From: Escherichia coli
GTDB taxonomy: Bacteria > Pseudomonadota > Gammaproteobacteria > Enterobacterales > Enterobacteriaceae
DNA: 64,000 nucleotides
Assembly: GCF_044324785.1 (NCBI RefSeq)
Contig: NZ_CP172127.1
Reading direction: 5' to 3' (one strand)
Shown piece after piece: positions 7,835 through 50,130 of the stretch. The position numbers and the translations under genes are program-made. Each line of letters opens with the position of its first letter. The first letter of the stretch is position 1. The notes under the pieces are model-generated. The model did no database searches. It saw nothing but the letters and a program-made list of their open reading frames with translations, and was not told where the DNA came from.

Positions 7835-9187
7835 TTACTGCCCGGCGATTTTCATCTCCGGCAACAGCACAGAACCACACTGTATATTACTGCGTGTTTC
7901 AATATCGTTACCGACGGTGACAATATTGCGCCACATATCTTTCAAATTACCTGCGATGGTGATTTCACTAACAGGATACTGAATTTCGCCATTCTCTACC
8001 CAGAAGCCCGCTGCACCACGGGAATAATCACCGGTAATGGCACTCACGCCCTGGCCCATTAGCTCCGTCACCACCAGCCCGGTGCCCATCTCTTTGAGCA
8101 TTTGTTCGAAGCTTAGCCCTTGTCCGGCAATCCGCCAGTTATGAATACCGCCCGCGTGCCCAGTGCTTTTCAGCCCCAGTTTCCGCGCCGAGTAGCTGGT
8201 CAGCAGCCACTGAGTCAGAATGCCATCTTTAATAATATCGCGACGCTCGGTGCGCACACCTTCGCTGTCGAATGGTGTAGATGCCAGCCCTTTCAGCAGA
8301 TGCGGATGTTCTTCAATAGTCAGCCAGTCCGGCAGAATTTGTTTACCGAGCGAGTCGAGCAAGAAGGTCGATTTACGGTAGACCGCACCACCCGCTATCG
8401 CCCCCACCAAATGACCAAACAACCCTGTTGCCACTTCATTGGCAAAAATCACCGGCGCTTTCATGGTAGAAAGTTTACGCGGTGACAGGCGCGATAAAGT
8501 GCGGCGAGCACAGTCGGCCCCGACCCACTCTGGCGTTTGCAGATCGCTCATCGCACGACCAATGGTGTAGGCGTAATCACGCTCCATATCGCCATTTTCT
8601 TCGGCAATTACACAGCTGGAGAGCGAATGACGCGTTGAGCAGTAACCCTGCAACATGCCGTGGCTGTTGCCAAAAACTTTGACACCGTAGTGGCTGTTAA
8701 AGCTGCCACCTTCGGTATTGGTGATGCGTTTATCCGCCTGCAATGCTGCCTGTTCTGCGCGGGCCGCCAGTTCAATGGCTTCATCCGGGGAAACTTCCGC
8801 AGGGTGGAACAAGTCGAGATCCGGTGCGTCAAAGGCCAGCAGCTCTTTGTCTGCCACGCCGGCACAGGGATCTGGCGAGGTATAACGGGCAATATCCAGC
8901 GCCGCCTGTACGGTGCGGGCAATGGCCTGCGGGCTTAAATCGGTAGACGATGCGCTACCTTTGCGGTTCTGGTGATAAACAGTGATCCCCAGCGCGCCAT
9001 CGCTATTAAATTCAACATTCTCCACTTCACCATAGCGCGTGCTTACGCTAATGCCGGTGGTCTTGCTGACGGCAACTTCCGCACCGTCCGATTTGCCTGA
9101 GGCCAACTCCAGCGCAGTGGAAACTGCTTCTTCCAGAATCTTGCGCTGCGCTTCAACTTGAGAGATTACTTTCATTGCAAGTGCCAT
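7835..9187 (-). CDS. pmbA: Metalloprotease PmbA/TldE
   Basis: 450 aa, PmbA/TldD fold; conserved position next to cybC. Confidence 0.9.
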
Positions 9188-9280
9188 AATGTAGAGAGTT
9201 TCTCTGAAGTCTAACAGAGAACCGTTTTTCAGTGCGCATCTTAACTGGTAACATTAGCCTCTTTTTTTAAGGAGCCTGAG

Positions 9281-9832
9281 ATGACTAAGCAGCCCGAAGA
9301 CTGGCTCGACGACGTTCCCGGTGATGACATCGAAGACGAAGACGATGAAATTATCTGGGTCAGTAAAAGTGAAATTAAACGCGATGCCGAGGAGCTAAAA
9401 CGCCTTGGCGCGGAAATTGTTGATCTGGGGAAAAACGCGCTGGATAAGATCCCGTTAGATGCGGATCTGCGCGCGGCTATTGAGCTTGCCCAGCGTATTA
9501 AGATGGAAGGTCGCCGCCGCCAGTTGCAGCTCATCGGCAAGATGCTGCGCCAGCGCGACGTAGAACCTATTCGTCAGGCGCTGGATAAGCTGAAAAACCG
9601 CCACAATCAGCAGGTGGTGCTGTTCCATAAACTGGAAAACCTGCGCGATCGTCTGATCGACCAGGGTGATGATGCCATCGCTGAAGTATTGAATCTGTGG
9701 CCCGATGCCGATCGTCAGCAACTGCGTACTCTGATCCGTAACGCGAAGAAAGAGAAAGAAGGGAATAAGCCACCGAAATCCGCACGCCAGATTTTCCAGT
9801 ATCTGCGCGAGTTAGCAGAGAACGAAGGGTAA
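9281..9832 (+). CDS. yjgA: Ribosome-associated DUF615 protein YjgA
   Basis: 183 aa, acidic N-terminus, strong RBS GGAG 7 nt upstream. Confidence 0.85.
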
Positions 9833-9857
9833 TTTTCGTTGTTGATGTGAGTATGGT

Positions 9858-9890
9858 TTGCCGGATACGGTGTAAACGCCTTATCCGGCA
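9858..9890. repeat. REP element between yjgA and mpl
   Basis: GCCGGATACGGTGTAAACGCCTTATCCGGC palindromic unit. Confidence 0.5.
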
Positions 9891-9914
9891 ATGCTATATC
9901 AGGCTGAGGCCGAA

Positions 9915-11288
9915 TTACTGCGCGGCTTCCGCTTTCTTCGCCAGACCATCCAGCAGTTTCTGATGGATGCCACCAAAACCGCCGTTGCTCATCACCAGAA
10001 TATGGTCGCCAGGCTGAGCGGTTTTCACCACCATATCTGCCAGCGTATCCACATCGCCACTCCAGTGTGCAGGCTGAACGCAGGCTTCTGCCACTTCTGC
10101 CACCTGCCACGGAATATGCGCCGGTTGCAGCAGGAAGACTTCATCGGCACGACCTAATGAAGGTGCCAGATCGTCTTTGCAGATCCCCATTTTCATGGTA
10201 TTCGAGCGCGGTTCCAGCACGGCAATAATGCGCGCCGTACCGCCAACTTTGCCACGCAGCGCCGCCAGCGTTGCCAGAATCGCAGTCGGGTGATGGGCGA
10301 AATCGTCATATACCGTCACGCCATTGGCTTCACCACGCAACTCCAGACGGCGACGAGCATTAATAAACGAACCCAGCGCGTTAGCGGCATCTGCCGGCGC
10401 TACGCCAACATGGCGGGCCGCCGCAATCGCCATCAGGCCATTATGCATATTATGTTCGCCTACCAGCGACCATTTCACTTCGCCCACTTTTTCGCCATCC
10501 AGCAAGACTTCCCATTCGGAAGCATCGGTGGTCAGCTTTTTCGCCTGCCAGTGACCCTGCTCGCCCACCAGCTCCTGCTCGCTCCAGCAGCCCATCGCCA
10601 TGGTCTGTTTCAGGTTGATGTCGTTTTCCGGCCAGATAATACGGCCCTGCCCCGGAACGATACGCACCAGATGGTGGAACTGTTTCTGGATCGCTTTCAG
10701 GTCGTCAAAGATATCGGCGTGATCGAACTCAAGGTTGTTGAGGATCAGCGTACGCGGGCAGTAATGGACAAATTTAGAGCGTTTGTCGAAAAAGGCGCAG
10801 TCGTACTCATCCGCTTCGATAACAAAGAAGTCGCTTTCGCCCAGACGCGCCGAAACCTCAAAGTTCCCCGGCACACCGCCGATCACAAATCCCGGTTTGT
10901 AACCGCACTGTTCCAGAATCCAGGTCGCCATTCCCGCGGTGGTAGTTTTGCCGTGTGTACCGGCAACGGCCAGCACCCAGCGGTCGCGCAGCACAAAATC
11001 GTGCAGCCACTGTGGACCTGACATATAAGGGATGTTTTTTTCCAGTACCGCTTCCACACACGGATTTCCACGGGTCATGGCGTTGCCAATAATCACCAGA
11101 TCCGGCTGCGGGTCGAGCTGGCTGGCATCGTAACCCTGAATCAGTTCAATGCCTTGCTTCTCAAGTAAGGTGCTCATCGGCGGATACACATTGGCGTCCG
11201 AACCCGTTACTTCATGGCCTAACTGGCGCGCCAGCATCGCCAGACCGCCCATAAACGTGCCACAAATTCCTAAAATATGAATGCGCAT
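9915..11288 (-). CDS. mpl: UDP-N-acetylmuramate:L-alanyl-gamma-D-glutamyl-meso-diaminopimelate ligase (murein peptide ligase)
   Basis: 457 aa Mur-ligase family (GTHGKTTT P-loop). Confidence 0.9.
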   Translation of the reverse strand: MRIHILGICGTFMGGLAMLARQLGHEVTGSDANVYPPMSTLLEKQGIELIQGYDASQLDPQPDLVIIGNAMTRGNPCVEAVLEKNIPYMSGPQWLHDFVLRDRWVLAVAGTHGKTTTAGMATWILEQCGYKPGFVIGGVPGNFEVSARLGESDFFVIEADEYDCAFFDKRSKFVHYCPRTLILNNLEFDHADIFDDLKAIQKQFHHLVRIVPGQGRIIWPENDINLKQTMAMGCWSEQELVGEQGHWQAKKLTTDASEWEVLLDGEKVGEVKWSLVGEHNMHNGLMAIAAARHVGVAPADAANALGSFINARRRLELRGEANGVTVYDDFAHHPTAILATLAALRGKVGGTARIIAVLEPRSNTMKMGICKDDLAPSLGRADEVFLLQPAHIPWQVAEVAEACVQPAHWSGDVDTLADMVVKTAQPGDHILVMSNGGFGGIHQKLLDGLAKKAEAAQ

Positions 11289-16037: not shown

Positions 16038-16145
16038 GCGCCAGATAAGACACAACAGCGTCGCATCAGGCATCTCGCACAACCGCCGGATGCGGCGTGA
16101 ATGCCTTATCCGGCGGCCCACAAGTCGGCATCAGGCATTGATGCC
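16038..16145. repeat. REP/BIME cluster between ytfR and ytfQ
   Basis: Multiple GCCGGATGCGGCG.../CGCATCAGGC palindromic units. Confidence 0.55.
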
Positions 16146-25573: not shown

Positions 25574-25672
25574 TGCCGGATGCGACGTAAACGCCTTGCC
25601 AGGCCTACAAAACCCTCCAAATTCAATATATTGCAGGGACTTCGTAGGCCTGATCGGCATAGCGCATCAGGC
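25574..25672. repeat. REP elements between msrA and ytfL
   Basis: GCCGGATGCGACGTAAACGCCTTGCCAGGCCTACA and inverted partner. Confidence 0.5.
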
Positions 25673-25849
25673 AGTTTTTCATTTATCAACAGTCTGAATT
25701 TTAACCCTCTGGCGGCTTTACAGTACCTTACGCTATACTAGCCACTGAAAATGCCGGTTCACTTTCTTCGAATCGGCTTTCAATGTGTATTTCACACAAA
25801 TTAATCAACTTCCCCTTCCGAGGATCTGGCCTGAAAGGTCGGATAAGAT

Positions 25850-30293: not shown

Positions 30294-30482
30294 TTCTCCA
30301 CCTCGTCTCTGTGAGCGGTGTTAACTTATTGTTTTACTTATACCCTATCGTTAATGAATGCGCCAACTGTGATAGTGTCATCATTTTCAAAGCGTAAAAT
30401 TGTGGCATTCTTCACTGTTCTATAAGTAAGACGTTTATTCTCCCTTTTCTTTCGTATTCCCGATGATAAAAGGATGTCCCTG

Positions 30483-35770: not shown

Positions 35771-37183
35771 TTATTTCCGCAGTTCAGCAGCCCGCTTCTT
35801 ACCAATAAACAGCCAGCCCAGCCCCAGTGCGATAAACCACAGCGGGGTAACCAGCAGCGCCTGGCGAGTGTCATCTTCCAGTGTCAGCAACACGACCACG
35901 AACACAAAGAACGCCATACATACCCAGCACATCAGCTTGCCGAGCGGCATCTTGTAGATCGACTTCTCATGCAGATGAGGACGCTGTTTGCGGTACACCA
36001 GGTACGAGCAAAGGATAATCGTCCAGACGAACATAAACAGAATCGCGGAAACGGTTGTAATCATCGTGAACGCGCCAATCACGCTGGGATTCACATACAA
36101 CATCACCACGCCGCCGAGCAGACAGATACAAGAGAAGGTCAGCCCTTTCGCGGGTACTGCGCGCTTAGAGAGTTTAGCGAACGCTTTCGGTGCCACACCT
36201 TCCTGCGCCAGACCAAACAGCATACGACTGGTAGAGAAGACGCCGCTGTTAGCGGAAGACGCCGCAGAGGTCAGCACCACAAAGTTAATCACGCTGGCGG
36301 CAGCAGGCAGCCCTACCAACACAAACAGTTCAACGAACGGACTTTTCTCCGGGACTACCGAACTCCACGGCGTCACGGACATAATCACAATCAGCGCGAA
36401 GACGTAGAACATAATGATACGGATCGGAATGGAGTTAATCGCGCGTGGCAGTGATTTCTCTGGATCTTTGGTTTCCGCAGCTGTTGTACCTACCAGCTCA
36501 ATCCCTACGAAAGCGAAAACCGCTATCTGGAATCCGGCAAAGAAGCCACTTAAACCTTTCGGGAACCAGCCGCCATCATTCCACAAATGCGCGAATGACG
36601 CTTCTACACCGGTCGGTGACTGAAAGTGCATCGCCACCATGACCAGGCCGACGACTATCAGCGACACAATGGCGACGATTTTGATCATCGCAAACCAGAA
36701 CTCCATCTCACCGAACATTTTCACGGTGGCGAGGTTGAGCGTCAGCAGCAGCACTATCACCGCCAGCGAGGCGACCCAGTCGGAGAGATCGGGGAACCAG
36801 AACTGAGCATAAGCCGTGATCGCCACCACGTCTGCCATACCGGTTACAACCCAGCAGAACCAGTAAGTCCAGCCGGTGAAATATCCTGCCCACGGCCCGA
36901 GTAAATCGGAAGCGAAGTCACTAAAAGATTTGTATTCCAGATTCGAAAGCAGCAATTCCCCCATTGCCCGCATCACGAAAAAGAGCATAAAACCAATGAT
37001 CATATAAACAAAAATGATCGACGGTCCGGCAAGACTGATTGTTTTACCGGACCCCATAAACAACCCAGTACCAATGGCACCGCCAATGGCAATAAGCTGA
37101 ATATGTCGGTTTGTGAGATTGCGCCGTAGCGACTGTTCAGCCGGAGCCTGATCATCGGCAACGACTTTTACCTGATCTACCAT
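35771..37183 (-). CDS. cycA: D-serine/D-alanine/glycine APC-family transporter
   Basis: 470 aa amino-acid permease (12 TM). Confidence 0.92.
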   Translation of the reverse strand: MVDQVKVVADDQAPAEQSLRRNLTNRHIQLIAIGGAIGTGLFMGSGKTISLAGPSIIFVYMIIGFMLFFVMRAMGELLLSNLEYKSFSDFASDLLGPWAGYFTGWTYWFCWVVTGMADVVAITAYAQFWFPDLSDWVASLAVIVLLLTLNLATVKMFGEMEFWFAMIKIVAIVSLIVVGLVMVAMHFQSPTGVEASFAHLWNDGGWFPKGLSGFFAGFQIAVFAFVGIELVGTTAAETKDPEKSLPRAINSIPIRIIMFYVFALIVIMSVTPWSSVVPEKSPFVELFVLVGLPAAASVINFVVLTSAASSANSGVFSTSRMLFGLAQEGVAPKAFAKLSKRAVPAKGLTFSCICLLGGVVMLYVNPSVIGAFTMITTVSAILFMFVWTIILCSYLVYRKQRPHLHEKSIYKMPLGKLMCWVCMAFFVFVVVLLTLEDDTRQALLVTPLWFIALGLGWLFIGKKRAAELRK

Positions 37184-37491
37184 GTTTTTTTCTTCCTGTA
37201 CCTGTCTGTGTTGTTCAGGCTCTACGGCCTTTAGTCAGTCTATGATACGACGAATCTGTATCGGGACTCATCGATATTAGGTAACAATACGCGGGATGAA
37301 TACTAAGATTTAGATCTAATGTTAATTTTATGTTTAAAGTGAGTGTCATATCACGGTGATAACGCGAAACAGCTCACAAAAATACACGCTTACGGGGTCT
37401 TTGCAACACAAAATAGCGCCGTTTGGCAAACTGAAGGGTTTATTGCTGAATGTCTGCTCCCCTCTGGTTCGAGGGGAACAGAATGCGCTGC

Positions 37492-38112
37492 TTAGAGGAT
37501 TTCCAGCAGTTCGACTTCAAACACCAGGGTGCTGAACGGAGGGATGGACGCGCCAGCGCCGCGCTCGCCATATGCCAGTTCCTGCGGGATAGTCAGTTCC
37601 CATTTAGAACCTACCGGCATCAGAGTCAGTGCTTCAATCCAGCCAGGGATCACGCCGTTAACCGGGAATTCAGCTGGCTCGCCGCGAGCAACGGAGCTGT
37701 CAAACACGGTGCCGTCGATCAGTTTTCCGGTGTAATGAACACGAACGCGGTCGGTACGTGCCGGAATTGCGCCTTCGCCCTGGTTGATCACGCGGAATTG
37801 CAGGCCAGATTCGGTGCTATTTACACCTTCTTTTTTGGCGTTTTCTTCCAGGTATTTCACACCTTCAGCAGCCATCGCCTGGAAACGCTGACGACGAACG
37901 GCATCGGCGCGTTCGTGGATTTCACGCAGCGCGCGGTGCACCACATCAACCGGAACAGCCGGATGTTTGCCTTCCAGCGCATCAGCAATGCCTGCAACCA
38001 GTGCTTCTGGCAGCAGCCCTTCCAGGCCAGATTCACTCAGTTGTTGCCCTACCTGCAAACCAATGCCGTAGCTTGCTTGCGCTTCGATGGTGTCAAAAGT
38101 TGGGGTGGTCAT
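37492..38112 (-). CDS. fklB: FKBP-type peptidyl-prolyl cis-trans isomerase
   Basis: 206 aa from internal ATG ([20 protein letters not shown]...), FKBP C-domain. Confidence 0.9.
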
Positions 38113-38329
38113 CGTATTTCCTTTCTTAGGGTATAAAGTAGCGGGCAGCATATCAGCCACACTTCTTTGGGTAAAACTTTGTCGCGGGAATGATGACAAA
38201 TCACGGGGAAAAAGAAACAATAGCAATATCCCGTATGAATATAATAAAGGCGGGTTTACCACGGACATCATAGCGTTAGCTTATTCATAGGCTATGATTG
38301 AGGAACAAGACGCGGAGCAGGAGGAAACC

Positions 38330-38968
38330 ATGCCCGGGCGCTTTGAACTAAAACCAACCCTGGAGAAAGTCTGGCACGCGCCGGACAATTTTCGCTTCAT
38401 GGACCCGCTGCCGCCGATGCATCGTCGGGGGATCATTATTGCCGCCATTGTATTGGTGGTCGGATTTCTGCTTCCATCTGATGATACGCCCAACGCGCCG
38501 GTGGTGACGCGTGAAGCGCAGTTAGATATTCAGTCGCAATCACAACCGCCGACAGAAGAACAGCTGCGGGCGCAATTAGTCACCCCACAAAATGATCCTG
38601 ATCAGGTGGCTCCGGTCGCTCCAGAACCTATACAGGAAGGCCAGCCAGAAGAGCAGCCGCAAACCACCCAAACGCAACCATTCCAGCCAGATAGCGGAAT
38701 TGATAATCAATGGCGCTCTTACCGTGTCGAACCCGGTAAAACGATGGCGCAGCTGTTCCGCGACCACGGACTGCCCGCTACCGATGTCTATGCAATGGCG
38801 CAGGTAGAAGGCGCGGGTAAGCCGCTGAGTAATTTGCAAAACGGGCAGATGGTGAAAATCCGCCAGAACGCCAGCGGCGTGGTGACGGGCTTAACCATTG
38901 ATACGGGGAATAATCAACAGGTCCTGTTTACCCGCCAGCCGGATGGCAGTTTTATTCGTGCGCGGTAG
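38330..38968 (+). CDS. ytfB: OapA/LysM-like cell-division-associated protein
   Basis: 212 aa from internal ATG ([23 protein letters not shown]...), membrane anchor, Pro/Gln-rich linker. Confidence 0.8.
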
Positions 38969-39599
38969 ATGAAGGATCAACCAAAAGCCAGCTAAGGAGC
39001 GTCTCTTTGATGACCTTACGTCTGGCTTCCAGTGCCTGGGGGGAAACCATACTGATATGATAAACTAGGCCAAGCGTATGCTGGTTGATCAAATAATATC
39101 CCCCAAGCGCAGCAATATTAATATTCACCTGCAATGGGTCGATATCTGGCTTAAAAATATTGTGTTTCTTCCCTTCATCCAATAAGGATTCCATTAACTG
39201 CAAGTGCGCATGGTTAATTTCTAAGAGACGCTGTGATTTTGCATAATGCACACCTTTACTTTGATTTTCACTATGCACAATTTTTAAAAACCAGGGGTTA
39301 GCAATATAATAATCCCATGTAAAATCAATAATTTTCTCAATGGCTTTTTGTGGCGGAAGATCTGAGAAATCAAGGGCCTTTTCTTTTTGTCGAATATCGT
39401 TCCAGGTATATTCCAGTACTTCAATAAATAAATTTTCTTTATTACCAAAGTGATGATAAACCGTCTGTTTACTACACCCCGCAGCCTTAACAATATTATC
39501 GACCCTGGCCCCTTCATAACCATATTCGGCAAATTCATTAACCGCGCATAACAGCAGCTTTTCCTTCAGGCTCTGTACGTTGCTGGTATCAAGATACAT
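38952..39599 (-). CDS. TetR/AcrR-family transcriptional regulator, divergent from the accessory operon (possibly the intact form of K-12 ytfA)
   Basis: 215 aa from ATG at 39599; N-terminal HTH ([23 protein letters not shown]); 3' end overlaps ytfB by about 17 nt. Confidence 0.8.
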
Positions 39600-39721
39600 A
39601 ACGCTTCCCCACGACCTCTTCAAGACAACTATCTTAACCCGATTAATTAGAAGCTCCAGTAAAAAGGATAAAAACTTGTACTTTCATCAAGTTATCAAAT
39701 GTCCTGTGATCACTATCGCAT

Positions 39722-39743
39722 ATCAACCAACCAGATGGTTGAT
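39722..39743. promoter_or_regulatory. Perfect inverted repeat ATCAACCA-N6-TGGTTGAT in divergent promoter region; candidate operator of the TetR regulator
   Basis: Verified against ORF-track translation of this region; a second repeat CTTGCG-N6-CGCAAG lies at about 39748-39765. Confidence 0.4.
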
Positions 39744-39809
39744 CTTTCTTGCGGCACGTCGCAAGCTAATTGTCACTTAGAAACAATATTCAAAAAAGAG
39801 AGCTATTGT

Positions 39810-40601
39810 ATGAAATCCACTCGTCCTGTTGCCGTGATTACCGGAGCCGCTCGTGGTATTGGAAAGGGCTGTGCGCTGGAGCTTGCTCGTGGCGGATTTA
39901 ACCTGCTGATTAACGATCGCCCCGATGATGACAGCGTAGAAAAATTACATGCCACGCAACAGGAATGTCTGGCAGAAGGTGTGGAAGTGATTTGCTTCCC
40001 TGCCGATGTCGGCGATCTCTCCTTGCATGAAGAGATGCTCGACGCGGCACAAAACCAGTGGGGACGTCTGGACTGCCTGCTCAACAACGCAGGCATTTCA
40101 GTGAAAAAACGCGGTGACCTTCTCGACCTCGAACCAGACAGCTTCGACCAAAATATTGCCATTAACACCCGCGCACCGTTCTTCCTCGCTCAGGCATTCA
40201 GTAAGCGCTTACTGGCACAGCCGAAACCGGAAGCAGAACTGCCGCACCGCTCGATTATTTTTGTCAGTTCCATCAACGCCATCATGCTGGCGATGAATCG
40301 CGGCGAATATACCATTGCCAAAACTGCCGTCTCTGCCGCTGCTCGTCTGTTTGCTGCTCGGCTTTGTAATGAACAAATTGGCGTTTATGAAGTGCGTCCT
40401 GGTCTCATCAAAACCGATATGACTATTCCGGCAACGGCCTATTACGACGAACTGATTGCCAAAGGTCTGGTGCCGTGGGGACGTTGGGGTTATCCGGCTG
40501 ATATTGCTTCCACTGTCCGCGCGATGGCGGAAGGTAAACTGATTTACACCTGTGGTCAGGCGGTTGCCATTGACGGCGGCTTAAGTATGCCGCGTTTCTG
40601 A
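39810..40601 (+). CDS. Short-chain dehydrogenase/reductase (classical SDR, FabG-like)
   Basis: 263 aa; TGAARGIGKG cofactor motif, NNAG, catalytic Y-x3-K (YTIAK); RBS AAAGAGAG upstream. Confidence 0.8.
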   Translation: MKSTRPVAVITGAARGIGKGCALELARGGFNLLINDRPDDDSVEKLHATQQECLAEGVEVICFPADVGDLSLHEEMLDAAQNQWGRLDCLLNNAGISVKKRGDLLDLEPDSFDQNIAINTRAPFFLAQAFSKRLLAQPKPEAELPHRSIIFVSSINAIMLAMNRGEYTIAKTAVSAAARLFAARLCNEQIGVYEVRPGLIKTDMTIPATAYYDELIAKGLVPWGRWGYPADIASTVRAMAEGKLIYTCGQAVAIDGGLSMPRF

Positions 40602-40610
40602 GGCTGAATC

Positions 40611-41453
40611 ATGAGAGATCTGTTACAACGCCCGGATTTATTCAGTATCAATACCGCGACACTGGGCTATAAAACGCCGCTTCCCGCCATTATTGATGCC
40701 TGCGCCGCACGCGGTATTGGCGCAATTGCCCCCTGGCGCAGGGAGTTGCAGGGTGAAGATCTCCAGCAAATCGCCCGCCAGCTTGCCGCCAGTAAGATGA
40801 ACGTTTCCGGTTTGTGCCGTAGCACTTACTACACCGCGCCGACACTGGCGGAACGCAAACTGGCGATTGATGATAACCGCCGGGCGCTGGACGACGCAGC
40901 GGTGCTTAACGCCGCCTGTTATATGCAGGTGGTTGGCGGGTTACCGCAGGGAACAAAAGATTTGTACGAAGCGCGGGAACAAGTAAAACAAGGGATTCGC
41001 CAGTTGCTGCCACATTCGAAAGATGTCGGCGTGCCAATTGCGCTGGAGCCGCTGCACCCGATGACTGCTGCCGACCGCTCTTGCCTGTGCACGTTACGTC
41101 AGGCGCTGGACTGGTGTGATGAACTCGATCCCGATGGTGAGTTTGGCCTCGGCGTAGCGGTAGATGTCTACCATGTCTGGTGGGACCCGGATCTCGCCAG
41201 CCAACTCCAGCGCGCCGGAAAACGCATCCTCGCGTTTCATGTTTCCGACTGGTTAGTACCAACCACCGATCTGGTCAATGACCGTGGAATGCCGGGAGAT
41301 GGCGTCATCAATATTCCGTCAATTCGTCGGCTGGTTGAAAACGCCGGATTTAATGGCGCTATTGAACTGGAAATATTCTCGCCGTACTGGTGGCAAAAAG
41401 ATATTAACAGCACGCTGGATATTAGCGTCGATCGCATCGCGCATTATTGCTAA
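40611..41453 (+). CDS. Xylose-isomerase-like TIM-barrel enzyme (sugar-phosphate isomerase/epimerase or dehydratase superfamily)
   Basis: 280 aa; conserved metal-ligand-like positions (LEPLHP, HVSDW, ELEIFS); starts 9 nt after SDR stop. Confidence 0.75.
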   Translation: MRDLLQRPDLFSINTATLGYKTPLPAIIDACAARGIGAIAPWRRELQGEDLQQIARQLAASKMNVSGLCRSTYYTAPTLAERKLAIDDNRRALDDAAVLNAACYMQVVGGLPQGTKDLYEAREQVKQGIRQLLPHSKDVGVPIALEPLHPMTAADRSCLCTLRQALDWCDELDPDGEFGLGVAVDVYHVWWDPDLASQLQRAGKRILAFHVSDWLVPTTDLVNDRGMPGDGVINIPSIRRLVENAGFNGAIELEIFSPYWWQKDINSTLDISVDRIAHYC

Positions 41454-41462
41454 GGAATGATT

Positions 41463-42239
41463 ATGAGTGACCAACCCGTTCTGTTCAGCAGAGCGGCGGC
41501 TTCCTGCCGTCTGACATTGAACCGTGAAGATAAATGTCATGCTATTAATGAAGAGATGATTGAATCTCTCGATCATTATTTAAATGAAATTGAAAACGAC
41601 ACCACATTACGATTAGTCGAATTAACGGCAACCGGCGATAAATTCTTTTGTGCGGGCGGCGATATTAAATCGTGGTCAGCCTATTCGCCATTAGATATGG
41701 GCAGAAAATGGATTAAACGCGGTAATGACGTTTTTAATCGCCTGCGCAACTTACCCCAATTAACCGTTGCAAATCTCAACGGTCATACCATCGGCGGTGG
41801 TATTGAACTTGCTTTGTGCTGCGATATTCGTATTGCCCGTCCCGGCGCGAAATTCTCTAACCCGGAAGTGATGCTCGGCATGGTGCCTGGCTGGATGGGC
41901 ATTGAACGTGTGCTTAATCAGGTCGGTCCGGTGGTCGGTCGCCAGATGCTGATGCTGGGTAAACGCCTGACGGCGCGGGAAGCTCAGGCGGCGAATTTAA
42001 TTGATGAAGTGGTAGAAAAAGAACAGGTGGAAAGCTGGATGGCGAACCAGTTAGCGCAGCTGGAAAAATGTGGTCCGGTGGCGCTCGCACATATCAAGCA
42101 ACTGATTCTGGCACTGGAAAATAAACATGCCGATTACCCGCACCAGCTACTGGCTGGATTAATGTCCGCCACTCAGGATTGCCAGCAGGCGACGCGCGCG
42201 TTTGCCGAAAAAAGTAGCGTGAGCTTCCACAATCAATAA
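41463..42239 (+). CDS. Enoyl-CoA hydratase/isomerase (crotonase fold)
   Basis: 258 aa; oxyanion-hole segments FCAGGDIKSW and NGHTIGGGIELALCCDIRIA; start taken at second ATG, 6 nt after AAGGA. Confidence 0.8.
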   Translation: MSDQPVLFSRAAASCRLTLNREDKCHAINEEMIESLDHYLNEIENDTTLRLVELTATGDKFFCAGGDIKSWSAYSPLDMGRKWIKRGNDVFNRLRNLPQLTVANLNGHTIGGGIELALCCDIRIARPGAKFSNPEVMLGMVPGWMGIERVLNQVGPVVGRQMLMLGKRLTAREAQAANLIDEVVEKEQVESWMANQLAQLEKCGPVALAHIKQLILALENKHADYPHQLLAGLMSATQDCQQATRAFAEKSSVSFHNQ

Positions 42240-42248
42240 GGAAATTGT

Positions 42249-43790
42249 ATGCGTAAGATAACAACCGCCGAGGCACTGGCGGCGCAAATTCAGGACGGCG
42301 CAACCATTGCCATTAGCGGTAACGGCGGCGGCATGGTGGAAGCTGACCATATTATGGCCGCCATTGAAGCGCGTTTCCTGCAAACCGGACACCCTCGCGA
42401 TCTGACATTGATCCACTCGCTGGGTATTGGCGATCGCGACAGCAAAGGCACTAACCGTTTTGCTCACGCCGAAATGCTCAAACGCATTATTGCCGGACAT
42501 TTTACCTGGTCGCCCAAGATGCAGGAACTGGTGAAAAGCAATGCTATTGAAGCCTACTGTTTCCCTGGTGGCGTGATTCAGGCGTTGCTACGGGAGATCG
42601 GTGCCGGACGTCCGGGGCTTTTTACCCACGTTGGGCTGGGATCGTTTGTTGATCCACGCAATGGCGGCGGTAAGTCGAATGAATGCACTACCGACGACCT
42701 GGTAGAACTGATTGAAATCGACGGTGAGACCAAACTTCGTTATCGCCCTTTCAAAGTGGATTACGCGATTTTGCGTGGCACTTATGCCGATCCACGAGGC
42801 AACGTTAGCCTCGAAGAAGAAGCGATTGATATGGATAGCTATTCGATGGCGCTGGCAGCACACAACAGCGGTGGCAAAGTGTTCGTACAGGTACGCGATG
42901 TGCTGGAAGCAGGTGCCATTGAACCACGCCGGGTTAAATTACCGGGGATTCTGGTTGATGGCATCGTTGAACACCGCGAACAGCCACAAACCTATCTTGG
43001 CAGTTACGACCTGACCATCAGCGGCCAACATCGCCGTCTGAGTTCTAACGACGCTATTGAGCTGGTTAGTCATCCGGTGCGTCGCCTGATTGCCCGTCGG
43101 GCAGCGCGGGAACTGGTGGCAGGCGCTTCAACCAACTTTGGCTTTGGTATTCCCGGCGGCATTCCAGGAGTAGCGCTGCGCGAAGGCGTGCCTTACCAAA
43201 GTTTATGGCTGAGCGTCGAGCAAGGCGTGCATAACGGTATGATGCTGGATGATGCGTTTTTCGGCTGCGCCCGCAACGCCGATGCCATTATTCCATCACT
43301 CGATCAATTTGAGTTCTACAGTGGTGGAGGGATCGATATCACCTTCCTCGGCATGGGAGAGATGGATCAGTACGGTAACGTCAACGTATCCCATCTCAAT
43401 GGCAATCTGATTGGCCCCGGCGGATTTCTCGAAATTGCGCAAAATGCCCGTAAAGTGGTGTTCTGCGGCACGTTCGACGCTAAAGGCAGCAAAATCGATA
43501 TAACGCCAGATGGCTTGCATATCGCCCAGTCAGGTCAAATCCCTAAACTGGTTACCCAGGTGGAAAAAATCACTTTTAGCGCCGCCTACGCACAGCAAAG
43601 TGGTCAGGAAGTGTTGTATATCACTGAGCGCGCAGTATTCCAGTTAACGGCAGAAGGCGTTGAATTAATTGAAATCGCGCCGGGTGTAGAGATTGAGCGC
43701 GACATTCTGCCGTTCATGGCTTTCCGTCCAATTATCAAGCACCCACGCCTGATGGAAAGTAGCCTGTTTACGCCGATGGAGGATGCATGA
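42249..43790 (+). CDS. Family-I CoA-transferase, fused alpha/beta subunits (YdiF / propionate-CoA-transferase-like)
   Basis: 513 aa; N-terminal ISGNGGG and later SGGGIDITFLGMGEMDQYGNVNVS segments typical of 3-oxoacid CoA-transferases. Confidence 0.75.
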   Translation: MRKITTAEALAAQIQDGATIAISGNGGGMVEADHIMAAIEARFLQTGHPRDLTLIHSLGIGDRDSKGTNRFAHAEMLKRIIAGHFTWSPKMQELVKSNAIEAYCFPGGVIQALLREIGAGRPGLFTHVGLGSFVDPRNGGGKSNECTTDDLVELIEIDGETKLRYRPFKVDYAILRGTYADPRGNVSLEEEAIDMDSYSMALAAHNSGGKVFVQVRDVLEAGAIEPRRVKLPGILVDGIVEHREQPQTYLGSYDLTISGQHRRLSSNDAIELVSHPVRRLIARRAARELVAGASTNFGFGIPGGIPGVALREGVPYQSLWLSVEQGVHNGMMLDDAFFGCARNADAIIPSLDQFEFYSGGGIDITFLGMGEMDQYGNVNVSHLNGNLIGPGGFLEIAQNARKVVFCGTFDAKGSKIDITPDGLHIAQSGQIPKLVTQVEKITFSAAYAQQSGQEVLYITERAVFQLTAEGVELIEIAPGVEIERDILPFMAFRPIIKHPRLMESSLFTPMEDA

Positions 43791-45859
43791 GTCAGCTTGA
43801 TGACACCATCCTTGATGCGCTGACGCACGTCACTTTCCCAAAGGGGTTTGTGTCAGCAGAGCCAACGTCAATTGTCACCGTTGAGGATGTTGATTACCCG
43901 ATCTGGCAAGTTGATGCGCTGGTCGTTGGTAGCGGCGCAGCAGGATTACGTGCGGCAGTTGAACTTAAACGCCGCCAGCAAAATGTGCTGATCGCCACCG
44001 CCGGGTTATATATGGGGACGTCGGCATGTTCTGGTTCCGATAAACAGACGTTGTTTACCGCCGCTACCGCGGGCAACGGCGACAACTTCGCCAAACTGGC
44101 AGAGGCACTTGCGAGCGGTGGGGCGATGGATCACGACACCGCTTATGTCGAAGCGGTAGGTTCTCTGCACACTCTTGGCGGGTTGCAATATCTTGGTCTG
44201 GAATTACCGGAAGATCGCTATGGCGCGATTCTTCGTTATCAAACCGACCATGACGAAGCCGGGCGTGCAACCTCGTGTGGGCCGCGTACCTCAAGGTTAA
44301 TGGTGAAAGTGCTGCTGGAAGAAGTACAGCGTCTTGCTATCCCAATGTTGACCAGTGCAACAGTGATTAAACTGCTGCATCAGCGTGACGAAAACGGCGA
44401 AGACCGCGTGGCGGGGGCTATCCTCGCGACCGGTCATCGCGCCCATAACCCATGGGGGCTGGCAATTGTGATTGCGCCCAATGTGGTACTGGCAACAGGA
44501 GGGCCTGGCGAGCTTTATCGCGACAGTGTGTACCCACACAAATGTTTCGGCTCGCTGGGTCTGGCGCTGGAGGAAGGTCTGACGCTAACGAATCTGACTG
44601 AAAGCCAGTTTGGTATAGGCACACCGCGCAGCACGTTTCCGTGGAATTTGTCCGGGACTTATGTACAGGTGATCCCATATATCTATTCCGTGGATGCTGA
44701 GGGTAACGAGTATAACTTCCTCGCGGATTACTATCGCACCACCCAGGAGCTGGCTTCAAACATTTTCCGTAAAGGCTATCAGTGGCCGTTCCACGCCACT
44801 CGGGTGATGGATTTTGGCTCCAGCTTGTTAGATATGGCAGTAGCGCAAGAGCAGCAATCAGGGCGTCAGGTATTTATGGATTTCAATCGCAATCCTGAAG
44901 CGGTGCCGGGTGACCTGCCCTTCTCATTAGATCGACTGGACGACGACGTTCGCGCGTATCTGGAAAATAACGACGCTCTGGCACCATCGCCCATCGAACG
45001 GCTGCAACGAATGAATCCGCTGTCTATCTCGCTGTATAAGATGCACGGTTACGATCTCACCACACAGCCATTGCAGTTTGCCATGAATAATCAGCATATG
45101 AATGGCGGCATTGAAGTCGATATCTGGGGACAAACATCTCTACCCGGTTGTTTTGCAGTGGGGGAAGTTGCTGGCACACACGGCGTCACCCGACCTGGCG
45201 GCGCGGCATTGAATGCCGGGCAGGTTTTTGCTGTTCGTCTGGCACGTTTTATTGGTTGCACGCAAAAGCGGAATATTGATGGAGATATAGCACAGCTGGC
45301 AGCTCCGGCACTGGCTTCTATAAGAGAGATCATTACTCAGGCGCACGATAACGGGACCGGGATGCCGTTGTCGGTTGTGAGAGAAAAAATTCAGGCACGA
45401 ATGTCTGACCATGCGGGATTTATTTGTCATGCCGATAAAGTCCGACGCGCCACTCGTGATGCCCTGCTATTGAACGAATTTGTCCAACGGCATGGATTGG
45501 CAATCAAACATGTGGGTGAAGTTTCCGAGCTGTTTATGTGGCGGCATATGGCGCTGACTTCTGCCGCGGTATTAACACAATTAACGCATTATATTGATGC
45601 TGGTGGCGGCAGTCGTGGGGCGCGGATGGTTATTGATCCACAAGGCAAATGCCTACCACAAACTCGTCGCGGCGTAAAAGAAGAATGGCGTTTTCGCTCT
45701 GAACTCGCTGAAGATAAAAATCACAAATTAACAATTCAATATTCGCAAGGTTCTTTTATTACCGAAGTAAAGTCTTTACGTATGCAACCGTGTATTAACG
45801 GTATTTACTTTGAAAAAAACTGGCCAGACTTTTTAAAGGGAGACATTTACACACAATAA
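43787..45859 (+). CDS. FAD-binding oxidoreductase of the fumarate-reductase/succinate-dehydrogenase flavoprotein superfamily
   Basis: 690 aa; dinucleotide fold VVGSGAAGLRAA, later GEVAGTHGVTRPGGAALNAGQVFAVRLARF; ATGA overlap with upstream gene. Confidence 0.75.
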   Translation: MSQLDDTILDALTHVTFPKGFVSAEPTSIVTVEDVDYPIWQVDALVVGSGAAGLRAAVELKRRQQNVLIATAGLYMGTSACSGSDKQTLFTAATAGNGDNFAKLAEALASGGAMDHDTAYVEAVGSLHTLGGLQYLGLELPEDRYGAILRYQTDHDEAGRATSCGPRTSRLMVKVLLEEVQRLAIPMLTSATVIKLLHQRDENGEDRVAGAILATGHRAHNPWGLAIVIAPNVVLATGGPGELYRDSVYPHKCFGSLGLALEEGLTLTNLTESQFGIGTPRSTFPWNLSGTYVQVIPYIYSVDAEGNEYNFLADYYRTTQELASNIFRKGYQWPFHATRVMDFGSSLLDMAVAQEQQSGRQVFMDFNRNPEAVPGDLPFSLDRLDDDVRAYLENNDALAPSPIERLQRMNPLSISLYKMHGYDLTTQPLQFAMNNQHMNGGIEVDIWGQTSLPGCFAVGEVAGTHGVTRPGGAALNAGQVFAVRLARFIGCTQKRNIDGDIAQLAAPALASIREIITQAHDNGTGMPLSVVREKIQARMSDHAGFICHADKVRRATRDALLLNEFVQRHGLAIKHVGEVSELFMWRHMALTSAAVLTQLTHYIDAGGGSRGARMVIDPQGKCLPQTRRGVKEEWRFRSELAEDKNHKLTIQYSQGSFITEVKSLRMQPCINGIYFEKNWPDFLKGDIYTQ

Positions 45860-45951
45860 TTTTCAATATTTCCTCTGTACCTGATTTTTATTGCCTATTA
45901 CATGGAAATACCAACAACCAGGGTTTATTAATATAATTAAAAGGTTTAAAA

Positions 45952-47229
45952 ATGAATAAAATAAAGAATTATCGATGGCATATGATTGCCCTCGTATGCT
46001 TTATCACTGTAATCAATTATCTGGACAGAACGGCGTTAGGTATTGCGGCTCCAACGATTATGGAGACAACCGGAATAACTAAAGAGCAATATTCATGGAT
46101 TGTCAGTGCATTCCAGTTGGCCTATACATTAGGGCAACCGGTAATGGGCTTCTTTATTGATACCGTGGGTCTGAAGTTAAGTTTTGCGATATGTGCCGCA
46201 ATTTGGGGCCTGGCGACAATGGGCCATGCACTAACCGGAACGTGGTCTGGTCTGGCATTTATGCGCGCCCTGATGGGTTTCAGCGAAGCGTCGGCAATTC
46301 CGGCGGGTGTAAAAACCGCATCAACATGGTTCCCGGCAAAAGAGCGTGGCGTGGCGACAGGTGTTTTCAATATGGGCACCTCACTCGGCGCGATGCTTGC
46401 TCCACCGTTGATTGCCTGGTGCATTATGTTTCATAGCTGGCAATTTGCGTTTATTGTTTCAGGTAGCCTTGCTTTGCTCGCGGCTTTATTTTGGTTCTTT
46501 TGTTATAAAGATCCGAAAGATGCCAAACGCCTTTCTGATGAAGAGCGCCACTATATTGAATCAGGGCAAGAACAGCATCTTAAAACAGATAAGAAAGAAA
46601 AAACGTCAATCAAGCATATCCTCAGCCAACGTAATTTCTGGGGGATTGGCATCGCGCGTTTTCTCGCAGACCCGGCATGGGGAACCATTAACTTCTGGGT
46701 GCCGATTTTCTTCGTCGAAACGCTGCATTTTAGCCTGAAAGAAATTGCCATGTTCGTCTGGCTGCCTTTCCTGCTGGGCGATCTCGGCTGTTTAGCCAGT
46801 GGTTTTGTCGCGAAGTTCTTCCACGATCGCGGCGTGAGTTTAATTAACTCACGAAGAATTACCTTCACTATTGCAGCCGTCATTATGATGACGATTGGCC
46901 TGGTGAGTATTGTCGAAAATCCCTACATTGCCGTATTACTGATTAGTATTGGCGCGTTCTCGCATCAATGTCTTTCTACTGTAGCAGCAACTCTGGGTGG
47001 CGATCTGTTCAAAAAAGACGAAGTAGCTACCGCAGTGGGTATGGCAGGAGCCTGTGCGTGGAGCGGTCAGTTGATTTTCAACCTGTTCATCGGGGCATTC
47101 GTTCACATTATCGGCTTCGCGCCGTTCTTTATTGCCCTGGCTTTCTTTGACATTATTGGTGCTATTGCGTTGTGGACGCTTATCAAAGTTAAAGATGAAG
47201 AACCGCAAGTACAGCTAGCTACCCATTAA
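45952..47229 (+). CDS. MFS transporter, anion:cation symporter (ACS) family, ExuT/DgoT-like
   Basis: 425 aa; N-terminus NYRWHMIALVCFITVINYLDRTALGIAAPTIME and FPAKERG loop resemble hexuronate/aldonate transporters. Confidence 0.85.
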   Translation: MNKIKNYRWHMIALVCFITVINYLDRTALGIAAPTIMETTGITKEQYSWIVSAFQLAYTLGQPVMGFFIDTVGLKLSFAICAAIWGLATMGHALTGTWSGLAFMRALMGFSEASAIPAGVKTASTWFPAKERGVATGVFNMGTSLGAMLAPPLIAWCIMFHSWQFAFIVSGSLALLAALFWFFCYKDPKDAKRLSDEERHYIESGQEQHLKTDKKEKTSIKHILSQRNFWGIGIARFLADPAWGTINFWVPIFFVETLHFSLKEIAMFVWLPFLLGDLGCLASGFVAKFFHDRGVSLINSRRITFTIAAVIMMTIGLVSIVENPYIAVLLISIGAFSHQCLSTVAATLGGDLFKKDEVATAVGMAGACAWSGQLIFNLFIGAFVHIIGFAPFFIALAFFDIIGAIALWTLIKVKDEEPQVQLATH

Positions 47230-47242
47230 TTATTTTAAATAA

Positions 47243-47272
47243 AAACGCTATAATTGAGGTTATGGCGTTTTT
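47243..47272 (+). terminator. Probable rho-independent terminator after the MFS transporter gene
   Basis: AAACGCTATAA...TTATGGCGTTT stem (one G-U pair) followed by T-run. Confidence 0.4.
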
Positions 47273-47499
47273 AAAGAAGCTTGAGTTATCGAACCTCGCT
47301 TACCAACGCGTTGTCAATCATATCCCCCCTCCCTGCTGCATCGTTATATCCACAATGAGCGATTTTTGATATTAATATCTTTCACCATCCGCTATTTTCA
47401 CTACTTCAGAAAACAAACTTATTTTTATTAATATCGATTCTTTATTCTGTAAACATTCAGCTGAGATATTTATAAAAACATTAAACAGGCAACGATACA

Positions 47500-48294
47500 A
47501 TGACATTACCAACCACTATTTATTCATTTCCTGCATATTCACCCCGTTTTTCGTCCACCGACAAACCAGTAAAATTAAAATTTCATCAATACGCACGCGC
47601 TACATTACTTTCAAATCGTGGAAGAGATCATAATTGCGATGGCAGACATACTGTTGAGATCCACAAACTAGATCTCTCAGACTGGCAAGCATTCAATAAA
47701 CTAGCGATGGCGTGTAATGCTTACGATGGAATAACAATGAATGGTGATAATTCTTTTGGATGGAACCATGAAGCTACATTAGATAATATTCACGCCCAGA
47801 AATACAATAAAGCTTACGCGGGTGCGAGGTTAACCGCAGAACTGAAATATTTATTGCAAGATGTCGAATCCTTCGAACCCAACAGTAAATACACAATACA
47901 CGAGGTTGTTTTGGGTCCAGGTTATGGTACTCCAGACTATACCGGCCAAACGATAGGATACGTTGTAACCCTTCCTGCCCAAATGCCTAATTGCTGGTCA
48001 TCTGAACTACCAACAATCGATCTTTATATCGACCAACTTCGCACTGTTACAGGCGTTTCTAATGCCCTCGGATTCATCATTGCTGCATTGCTAAACGCGT
48101 ATTCTGATTTACCCCATGATTTGAAAATTGGTCTGCGTTCCTTATCAAGTTCAGCAGCAATCTACTCGGGTTTGGGTTTCGAGCGAGTGCCGCAGGGCCG
48201 AGACATAAGGTGCGATCATATGCATCTAACGCCAGCAAACCATCCTGAATTATGGACACAAGAGAATGGTGAATGGATCTACTTGCGAAACTAA
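47500..48294 (+). CDS. yjfZ: Uncharacterised DUF2686-like protein YjfZ (AT-rich gene)
   Basis: 264 aa, no motifs recognised, preceded by 270-bp AT-rich spacer; position next to rplI matches yjfZ. Confidence 0.7.
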   Translation: MTLPTTIYSFPAYSPRFSSTDKPVKLKFHQYARATLLSNRGRDHNCDGRHTVEIHKLDLSDWQAFNKLAMACNAYDGITMNGDNSFGWNHEATLDNIHAQKYNKAYAGARLTAELKYLLQDVESFEPNSKYTIHEVVLGPGYGTPDYTGQTIGYVVTLPAQMPNCWSSELPTIDLYIDQLRTVTGVSNALGFIIAALLNAYSDLPHDLKIGLRSLSSSAAIYSGLGFERVPQGRDIRCDHMHLTPANHPELWTQENGEWIYLRN

Positions 48295-48317
48295 TACCTG
48301 ACGAAAAATAGAAAGCA

Positions 48318-49408: not shown

Positions 49409-49822
<414 letters not shown>

Positions 49823-50130
49823 TTATTCAGCCTCCTGTCTGGGTCAGCCGAATCCCGGGGAGGCAAGGAACGTGTTAAAGGTCGGCTGAAAAATGACGCG
49901 TTATAGTACTGACATACCCCGCTAAACTCAAGGCCAGCCGACAAATAAATCTCATCTTTCACCAAATCGTACTAACACACTGATTTGAAGTTCATCACAC
50001 ATCATCATGGTGTTTTTTTGAACAACTGCATCAGAAATGGTCACCATCAACTTCTTTATCATTGATTAAAATTAAATCAGAAGATCATCACAAAGGAGAG
50101 CACACAAAGTCAGCCGTCGAGGAGGTATCT

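Follow-up and report, generated by a model that had tools for sequence, protein, structure and literature searches.

The convergent genes ytfB and ytfA of Escherichia coli overlap tail to tail by exactly 17 nt, and this overlap most likely arose neutrally, as a structural side effect of a displaced stop codon where the two genes meet very closely. We favour a neutral origin because the junction is found in three states within one species, because K-12-type genomes have lost the promoter and the N-terminus of ytfA, and because the overlapping tail of the regulator appears unconstrained and stop displacement is the accepted origin of convergent overlaps. PMC2478687 cites Rogozin et al. (2002) for stop loss as that origin, and 75 convergent overlapping pairs have been counted in the E. 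coli reference genome (Huvet and Stumpf 2014, PMC4161906). As a member of a common and well-described class, the overlap is of small importance. It offers a clean example of how a convergent overlap may arise and then be held by the codons of the partner gene. It also shows that, when genera are compared, the ytfA operon block has its edge at the ytfB stop codon, with the caution that within E. coli the presence/absence boundary of the block lies inside ytfA and not at the overlap.

The two genes and the distribution of their overlap

In the window, which is the whole 64,000-nt stretch of E. coli DNA analysed, ytfB occupies 38330..38968 on the plus strand and encodes an OapA-family LysM-like cell-division protein of 212 aa, with its TAG stop at 38966-38968 (ORF, Pfam and the mapped PGAP coordinates of strain N3). 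On the minus strand, ytfA occupies 38952..39599 and encodes a TetR/AcrR-family regulator of 215 aa, with its TAA stop, tta on the plus strand, at 38952-38954 (ORF, Pfam and PGAP). The shared segment, 38952..38968 on both strands, reads as YtfB ...(F)IRAR* on plus and as TetR ...(S)TAHE* on minus. In the list of open reading frames the two genes run from 38294 to 38968 (+) and from 38952 to 39623 (-); the RefSeq/PGAP starts are shorter and leave the overlap unchanged at 17 nt. Uncertainty in the start codons is irrelevant here, since a convergent overlap depends on stop codons only. The preliminary description had claimed a convergent overlap of about 17 nt between ytfB and a TetR regulator gene. 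Both stops, read directly from the sequence, bear out the overlap, which stands after the stop positions were rechecked as a possible refutation, and the Pfam matches and PGAP annotation agree with the identities given to the two genes.

YtfB matches OapA_N (PF08525, 1.8e-08) and LysM_OapA (PF04225, 5.9e-35), the latter over positions 1-84 of the 85 in the profile and reaching the last residues of the protein; an OapA_N motif followed by a C-terminal LysM_OapA domain points to membership of the OapA/YtfB LysM-like family. The regulator matches TetR_N (PF00440, 2e-14) and TetR_C_29 (PF17938, 7.5e-30), and its closest solved structure is PDB 3npi, aligned over residues 14-207. It combines the N-terminal TetR helix-turn-helix and the all-helical C-terminal ligand domain of the TetR/AcrR family. 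In the literature the gene is named ytfA and is variably present in E. coli (PMC6790063), and its K-12 copy is listed at 108 aa (PMC3614548). RefSeq calls ytfA of the K-12-type strain S17-1 a pseudogene, 'missing N-terminus'. The divergent intergenic region between ytfA and the first gene of the neighbouring operon, 39600..39809, is the presumed promoter/operator, judging from the gene layout.

The junction is widespread. A query covering 38200-39800 matched 5416 of 5426 complete E. coli genomes, and the 199-nt junction at 38860-39058 is at least 95% identical in 5026 of the 5426, so sequencing error is excluded. Stop coordinates themselves were sampled in about a dozen records, as against the 5426 genomes matched by sequence. 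RefSeq/PGAP annotates the identical 17-nt overlap in N3 (ytfB at 9131..9769 (+), the TetR/AcrR gene at 9753..10400 (-)), S17-1, O104:H4 and FDAARGOS_1298. The overlap is therefore already known, being visible in the RefSeq coordinates of the E. coli records examined, and it is not new in kind. The protein cluster of the 215-aa regulator has thousands of members. A script locating both stops in each locus found the 17-nt overlap in five species-level representatives of Escherichia (E. coli, E. albertii, E. whittamii, Escherichia sp. E1V33 and one further).

The same overlap is present in other genera. Gene calls around close homologues of the regulator placed a TetR gene at 9001..9648 and an OapA-family gene at 9632..10267 in Salmonella enterica, again overlapping by 17 nt, and one Citrobacter lineage and the P0047 lineage have the same layout and the same overlap. 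Salmonella and Citrobacter keep the 17 nt despite about 13% protein divergence. The overlap is most likely older than the split of Escherichia, Salmonella and Citrobacter, as judged from these sequences.

Probable codon constraint and the proposed displacement of the ytfA stop

The 3' end of ytfB reads AGT TTT ATT CGT GCG CGG TAG, that is, S F I R A R stop. Read in antisense, bases 2-3 of the Phe codon TTT together with base 1 of the Ile codon ATT give the TAA of the regulator. A TTC variant of the Phe codon, followed as here by a codon starting with A, would yield antisense TGA, which is also a stop. Because the regulator's stop is the antisense of conserved Phe-Ile codons of YtfB, the length of 17 nt is fixed. 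The YtfB end ...FIRAR is constant in Escherichia, Salmonella and Citrobacter, and among loci with the 17-nt overlap FIRAQ in the P0047 lineage (L057) is the single exception. It recurs, with some conservative substitutions, in genera without the regulator, and ...SFIRAR* is common to most genomes that have no neighbouring block. Selection acting on YtfB and on nothing else would be enough to explain why the stop stays where it is. The length is also unremarkable, since of the three overlaps open to antisense frames entering ytfB without a stop of their own (17, 55 or 78 nt) the actual one is the shortest.

The regulator side of the overlap behaves differently. Among the 17-nt-overlap loci the tail reads TAHE, TARE, TARG, IWRE or TGRE, and all of these differences but that of L057 are synonymous in ytfB. 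The TetR_C_29 match stops 15 residues short of the C-terminus. Since the overlapping codons of ytfA lie beyond both the Pfam domain and the 3npi alignment and vary freely, they would form an unconstrained tail outside the conserved TetR fold.

Junctions without overlap exist as well. In about 389 E. coli genomes, including ETEC E24377A, the TGA of ytfB abuts the TTA (TAA) of the regulator in a 0-nt junction, and the regulator has 212 aa and ends in ...NPARG. In the alignment, what distinguishes this allele from the 17-nt allele is an indel of 8 bp directly downstream of the ytfB stop, at approximately 38969..38972, the exact placement being alignment-dependent. E. coli EC05 has a 12-nt gap and a regulator of 211 aa ending in ...NPRM, and it matches the metagenomic lineage P0056. 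The overlap is therefore not obligatory, as the pair occurs in E. coli with a 17-nt overlap, with 0 nt and with a 12-nt gap. The 0-nt and 12-nt alleles of E. coli are imported or divergent haplotypes and not in-situ mutants of the 17-nt allele.

Farther away, an Entomohabitans-type locus has the same synteny with a 15-nt gap and a regulator of 209 aa ending in ...SWLLVAK. In Leminorella the operon lies elsewhere, beside a LacI-type gene, and the regulator has 208 aa and ends in ...SWLLQK*. Remoter homologues of 207 aa end two or three residues past the conserved Trp. Whereas the regulator has 215 aa in the window, it has 208-212 aa in non-overlapping contexts, and the C-terminus of YtfB is unchanged. 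The short C-terminus is likely ancestral and the 215-aa form a derived extension of 6-7 residues, on the basis of outgroup tails and parsimony and not of a formal phylogeny.

Two of the non-overlapping E. coli alleles carry further marks of their own. In the about 389 genomes, E24377A and an O113:H21 strain among them, a patch of about 1.7 kb, which corresponds to window about 38250-40100 and spans ytfB, ytfA and the promoter region of the operon, has only 72-85% identity to the window, as against 96-100% in its flanks. The patch looks like an imported or very old haplotype. Its YtfB is about 85% identical and bears the PGAP name 'LysM-like peptidoglycan-binding domain-containing protein' and not YtfB. 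In EC05 (L059 4080-4170), similarity to the window allele ends at the ytfB stop (window 38967/38968). Past it come a third ytfA allele of 211 aa with 82% protein identity and an operon interrupted by a copy of IS5. A recombination breakpoint in EC05 appears to coincide with the gene junction.

These observations suggest the following course of events. The seven-gene block lies immediately next to the 3' end of ytfB, a core gene, and its regulator would first have ended about 208-209 residues in (...SWLLxx*), with a stop of its own followed by roughly a dozen spacer bases. The regulator stop may then have been removed, or the frame shifted, by small indels at the junction, so that translation of ytfA would enter ytfB in antisense up to the first in-frame TAA. 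Selection on the Phe-Ile codons of YtfB would pin that TAA and keep the overlap at 17 nt across genera, with the extra residues of the TetR protein as an unconstrained tail. As a side effect, there would be no terminator between the genes, and the transcripts would be complementary at their 3' ends. We infer that this complementarity is of little or no regulatory importance. The retention of exactly 17 nt across three genera could also be read as selection on the overlap itself.

The pair resembles the short convergent overlapping pairs described earlier (PMC2478687; PMC4161906) and differs from them in nothing essential. The two genes lie on opposite strands and have their last codons in common, one of them is longer at its 3' end than its orthologues, and the overlap is short (17 nt) and kept among related species. 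Genuine genes, mutual stops, a 3' extension and conservation across species are the features examined by which stop-displacement pairs are recognised, and all are found here. What ytfB/ytfA adds to this class is the presence of three junction states in one species and a substitute stop held by the Phe-Ile codons of the partner.

Transcription across the junction

A scan of 38200-39800 found no terminator-like site between the two stops or just beyond them. On the minus strand the sole terminator candidate, a weak stem of 5 bp, lies about 190 nt into ytfB, and a plus-strand hairpin at about 38985-39027 has no U run after it. Both 3' regions fold no better than shuffled sequences (z = -1.1 and -1.25). 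As to base composition suited to Rho loading, neither stop is followed by a clear C-rich, G-poor tract. With no terminator between the genes, the mRNAs of both, when transcribed, must be complementary over at least their last codons, as read from the sequence, and each transcript probably runs some way into the partner gene.

Rfam gave nothing credible on 37000-41000 at a permissive threshold, and at the gathering threshold all matches in the whole window lay far from the junction. The SMRT-Cappable-seq supplements (PMC6131387) mention none of ytfB, ytfA and yjfZ, and a search of the Term-seq literature returned no usable data on the junction. K-12 is unsuited to junction transcript data because its ytfA promoter is deleted. 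The Rfam matches elsewhere in the window are naRNA4, ES036, STnc450, ES239 and the RpsF leader, all of them features to be expected in E. coli and unrelated to the junction; in coordinate order the five matches lie at 16039-16115 (-), 25609-25651 (+), 25731-25788 (+), 30360-30482 (-) and 49802-49886 (-).

A junction of this kind might be a coupling device, in which polymerase collision or RNA duplexes at the 3' ends link the expression of ytfB and ytfA in the manner of an excludon or a convergent-transcription switch. The lack of an intrinsic terminator between or shortly past the stops makes read-through plausible, the arrangement is kept across Escherichia, Salmonella and one Citrobacter lineage, and PMC10349824 reports transcriptional interference to be frequent in bacteria. 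We nevertheless consider a coupling function unlikely, and the transcriptional interference that the preliminary description had suggested as a possibility would probably be of little consequence. The same gene pair is found with 0-nt and 12-nt-gap junctions in E. coli and with a 15-nt gap in the Entomohabitans-type locus. Full coverage of ytfA is missing from about 42% of E. coli genomes (2,270/5,416), and at the loci examined in which the promoter and N-terminus of ytfA are deleted, the end of ytfB is unchanged. The conserved length is accounted for by the codon constraint of YtfB, and no structured or conserved RNA element is present. Furthermore, since the 0-nt, 12-nt and 15-nt junctions are equally without room for a terminator, complementarity is equally true of them, and the overlap of the coding sequences contributes nothing of its own to interference. 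Less probable still is an elaborated form of this reading, in which the terminator-less junction may couple the YtfB cell-division/adhesion protein to the catabolic operon repressed by YtfA and the three E. coli junction alleles would represent different coupling settings.

Known regulatory systems with convergent genes provide a measure of the difference. Listeria excludons are an example of convergent regulation by long antisense RNA, and prgQ/prgX of Enterococcus faecalis is reported to form a convergent-transcription switch (Chatterjee et al. 2011, cited in PMC10349824). The likeness to ytfB/ytfA consists in convergent neighbours, possibly complementary RNAs and possible polymerase collision. 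However, the antisense overlaps of those systems extend over hundreds of nucleotides or more and often span a promoter or a whole gene, and their reciprocal regulation has been demonstrated, whereas ytfB/ytfA has a documented coding overlap of 17 nt only, which is dispensable in natural alleles. In an excludon-type pair the overlap should be retained wherever the pair is retained, which the 0-nt, 12-nt and 15-nt junctions contradict. Bidirectional intrinsic terminators also occur between convergent genes, an arrangement reportedly treated by Ju, Li and Liu in 2019. The empty site in other genera, with ytfB, a GC-rich hairpin and an EamA gene, looks alike; the ytfB/ytfA junction of the window, in contrast, is without any such hairpin, and in Salmonella a similar one is found at the far edge of the block.

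The edge of the accessory block

The operon carried along with ytfA comprises six genes at 39810..47229 on the plus strand (PGAP of N3 mapped to the window, Pfam and NCBIfam). They encode an SDR protein, a xylose-isomerase-like TIM barrel, an enoyl-CoA hydratase, a FadX-like CoA-transferase, a 690-aa FAD-binding flavoprotein and a D-galactonate-transporter-like MFS protein; against NCBIfam the operon genes returned generic names only and no specific family. Escherichia, Salmonella and Citrobacter have the whole operon as a conserved unit; the Entomohabitans-type locus and Leminorella have at least part of it. The GC content of ytfA is about 37.5%, as compared with 48-59% in most of the operon, which is like its surroundings, so that only ytfA is clearly AT-rich. 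The annotation shows neither an integrase or transposase nor a tRNA within the intact block or next to it.

Enterobacter, Lelliottia, Leclercia, Yokenella, Silvania, Pseudocitrobacter and several Citrobacter have an empty site, with the order fklB, ytfB, a convergent EamA-family gene and rplI and no TetR gene; at a few Enterobacter/Lelliottia loci there is no EamA match and rplI directly follows ytfB. In the empty-site genomes a GC-rich hairpin lies within a few bases of the ytfB stop and is followed by the EamA stop, and the ytfB stop codon is exactly where similarity to the window breaks off. In Salmonella a comparable hairpin (GTCCCGGTA taa TACCGGGAC) separates the MFS gene from EamA at the block's far edge. 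The position of this hairpin, together with the end of similarity at the ytfB stop, places the seven-gene block between that stop and the hairpin. Compared between genera, the block, that is ytfA and its six-gene operon, thus abuts core DNA at the ytfB stop. At this far edge (window 47100-48300), Escherichia has yjfZ (DUF2686) in an AT-rich stretch of 37-41% GC, and the position of yjfZ is taken by an EamA-family transporter gene in Salmonella, in Citrobacter and in the empty-site genera.

The edge within E. coli is another one. A full regulator is present in 3146 of 5426 E. coli genomes. In the K-12-type deletion, which runs from 39354 to about 47331 (blastn of the S17-1, O104:H4 and Escherichia sp. 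E1V33 loci against the window), the left breakpoint falls inside ytfA and leaves a pseudogene remnant, with the ytfB end unchanged in the loci examined. In O104:H4 2011C-3493 the remnant is itself split at about 39059 by IS609, with tnpA and an InsQ/TnpB-family gene (L003 6860-8600). Both events leave the 17-nt overlap intact. The suggestion in the preliminary description that the junction is where the accessory block meets core DNA, which was to be checked by alignment with genomes lacking the block, therefore holds between genera, where the edge at the ytfB stop is sharp. It fails within E. coli, where the edge lies inside ytfA, and the overlap was rejected as an island edge in this species on account of the breakpoints at 39354 and about 39059.

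Several minor features accompany these breakpoints. DETEC-P793 and the other hits that cover 54% of the 38200-39800 query break at the same point as the IS609 insertion. At the scar of the K-12-type deletion (L002 7155-7261), the ytfA remnant and yjfZ are separated by a fragment of about 100 nt with only 79% identity to window 39899-40000, a segment close to the 5' end of the SDR gene. Escherichia sp. E1V33 (L009) has the same left breakpoint and the SDR-derived fragment, and it has no yjfZ.

That the K-12-type deletion and the IS609 insertion both spare the 3' end of ytfA along with the overlap might suggest that the overlap is selectively kept as an anchor, such that deletions of the whole block would damage the core gene ytfB. 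This is very improbable. Selection would act against deletions that reach into ytfB whether or not the genes overlap, the deletion observed abolishes the function of the block anyway and so protects nothing, and non-overlapping alleles retain the block equally well. Least probable of all is an artefact, either a frameshift or sequencing error at the regulator 3' end or a mis-called ORF, which might be suspected since many long convergent overlaps in databases are 3'-extension misannotations (PMC2478687) but which we reject on conservation across genomes and genera, with strong family matches for both ORFs, unambiguous stops, the near-identical junction and the populous 215-aa cluster in complete genomes and databases, and the same 17 nt in Salmonella and Citrobacter. 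Neutral displacement of the ytfA stop remains our preferred reading.

Matches to ytfB were also found in assemblies of unrelated Firmicutes. A 267-bp contig labelled Alkalicoccobacillus porphyridii (L048) carries residues 1-77 of a ytfB 99% identical to that of E. coli, and a contig labelled as a Thermoanaerobacteraceae MAG (L036) carries an enterobacterial ytfB with 74% identity over residues 6-212. Both are likely the result of contamination or mis-binning.
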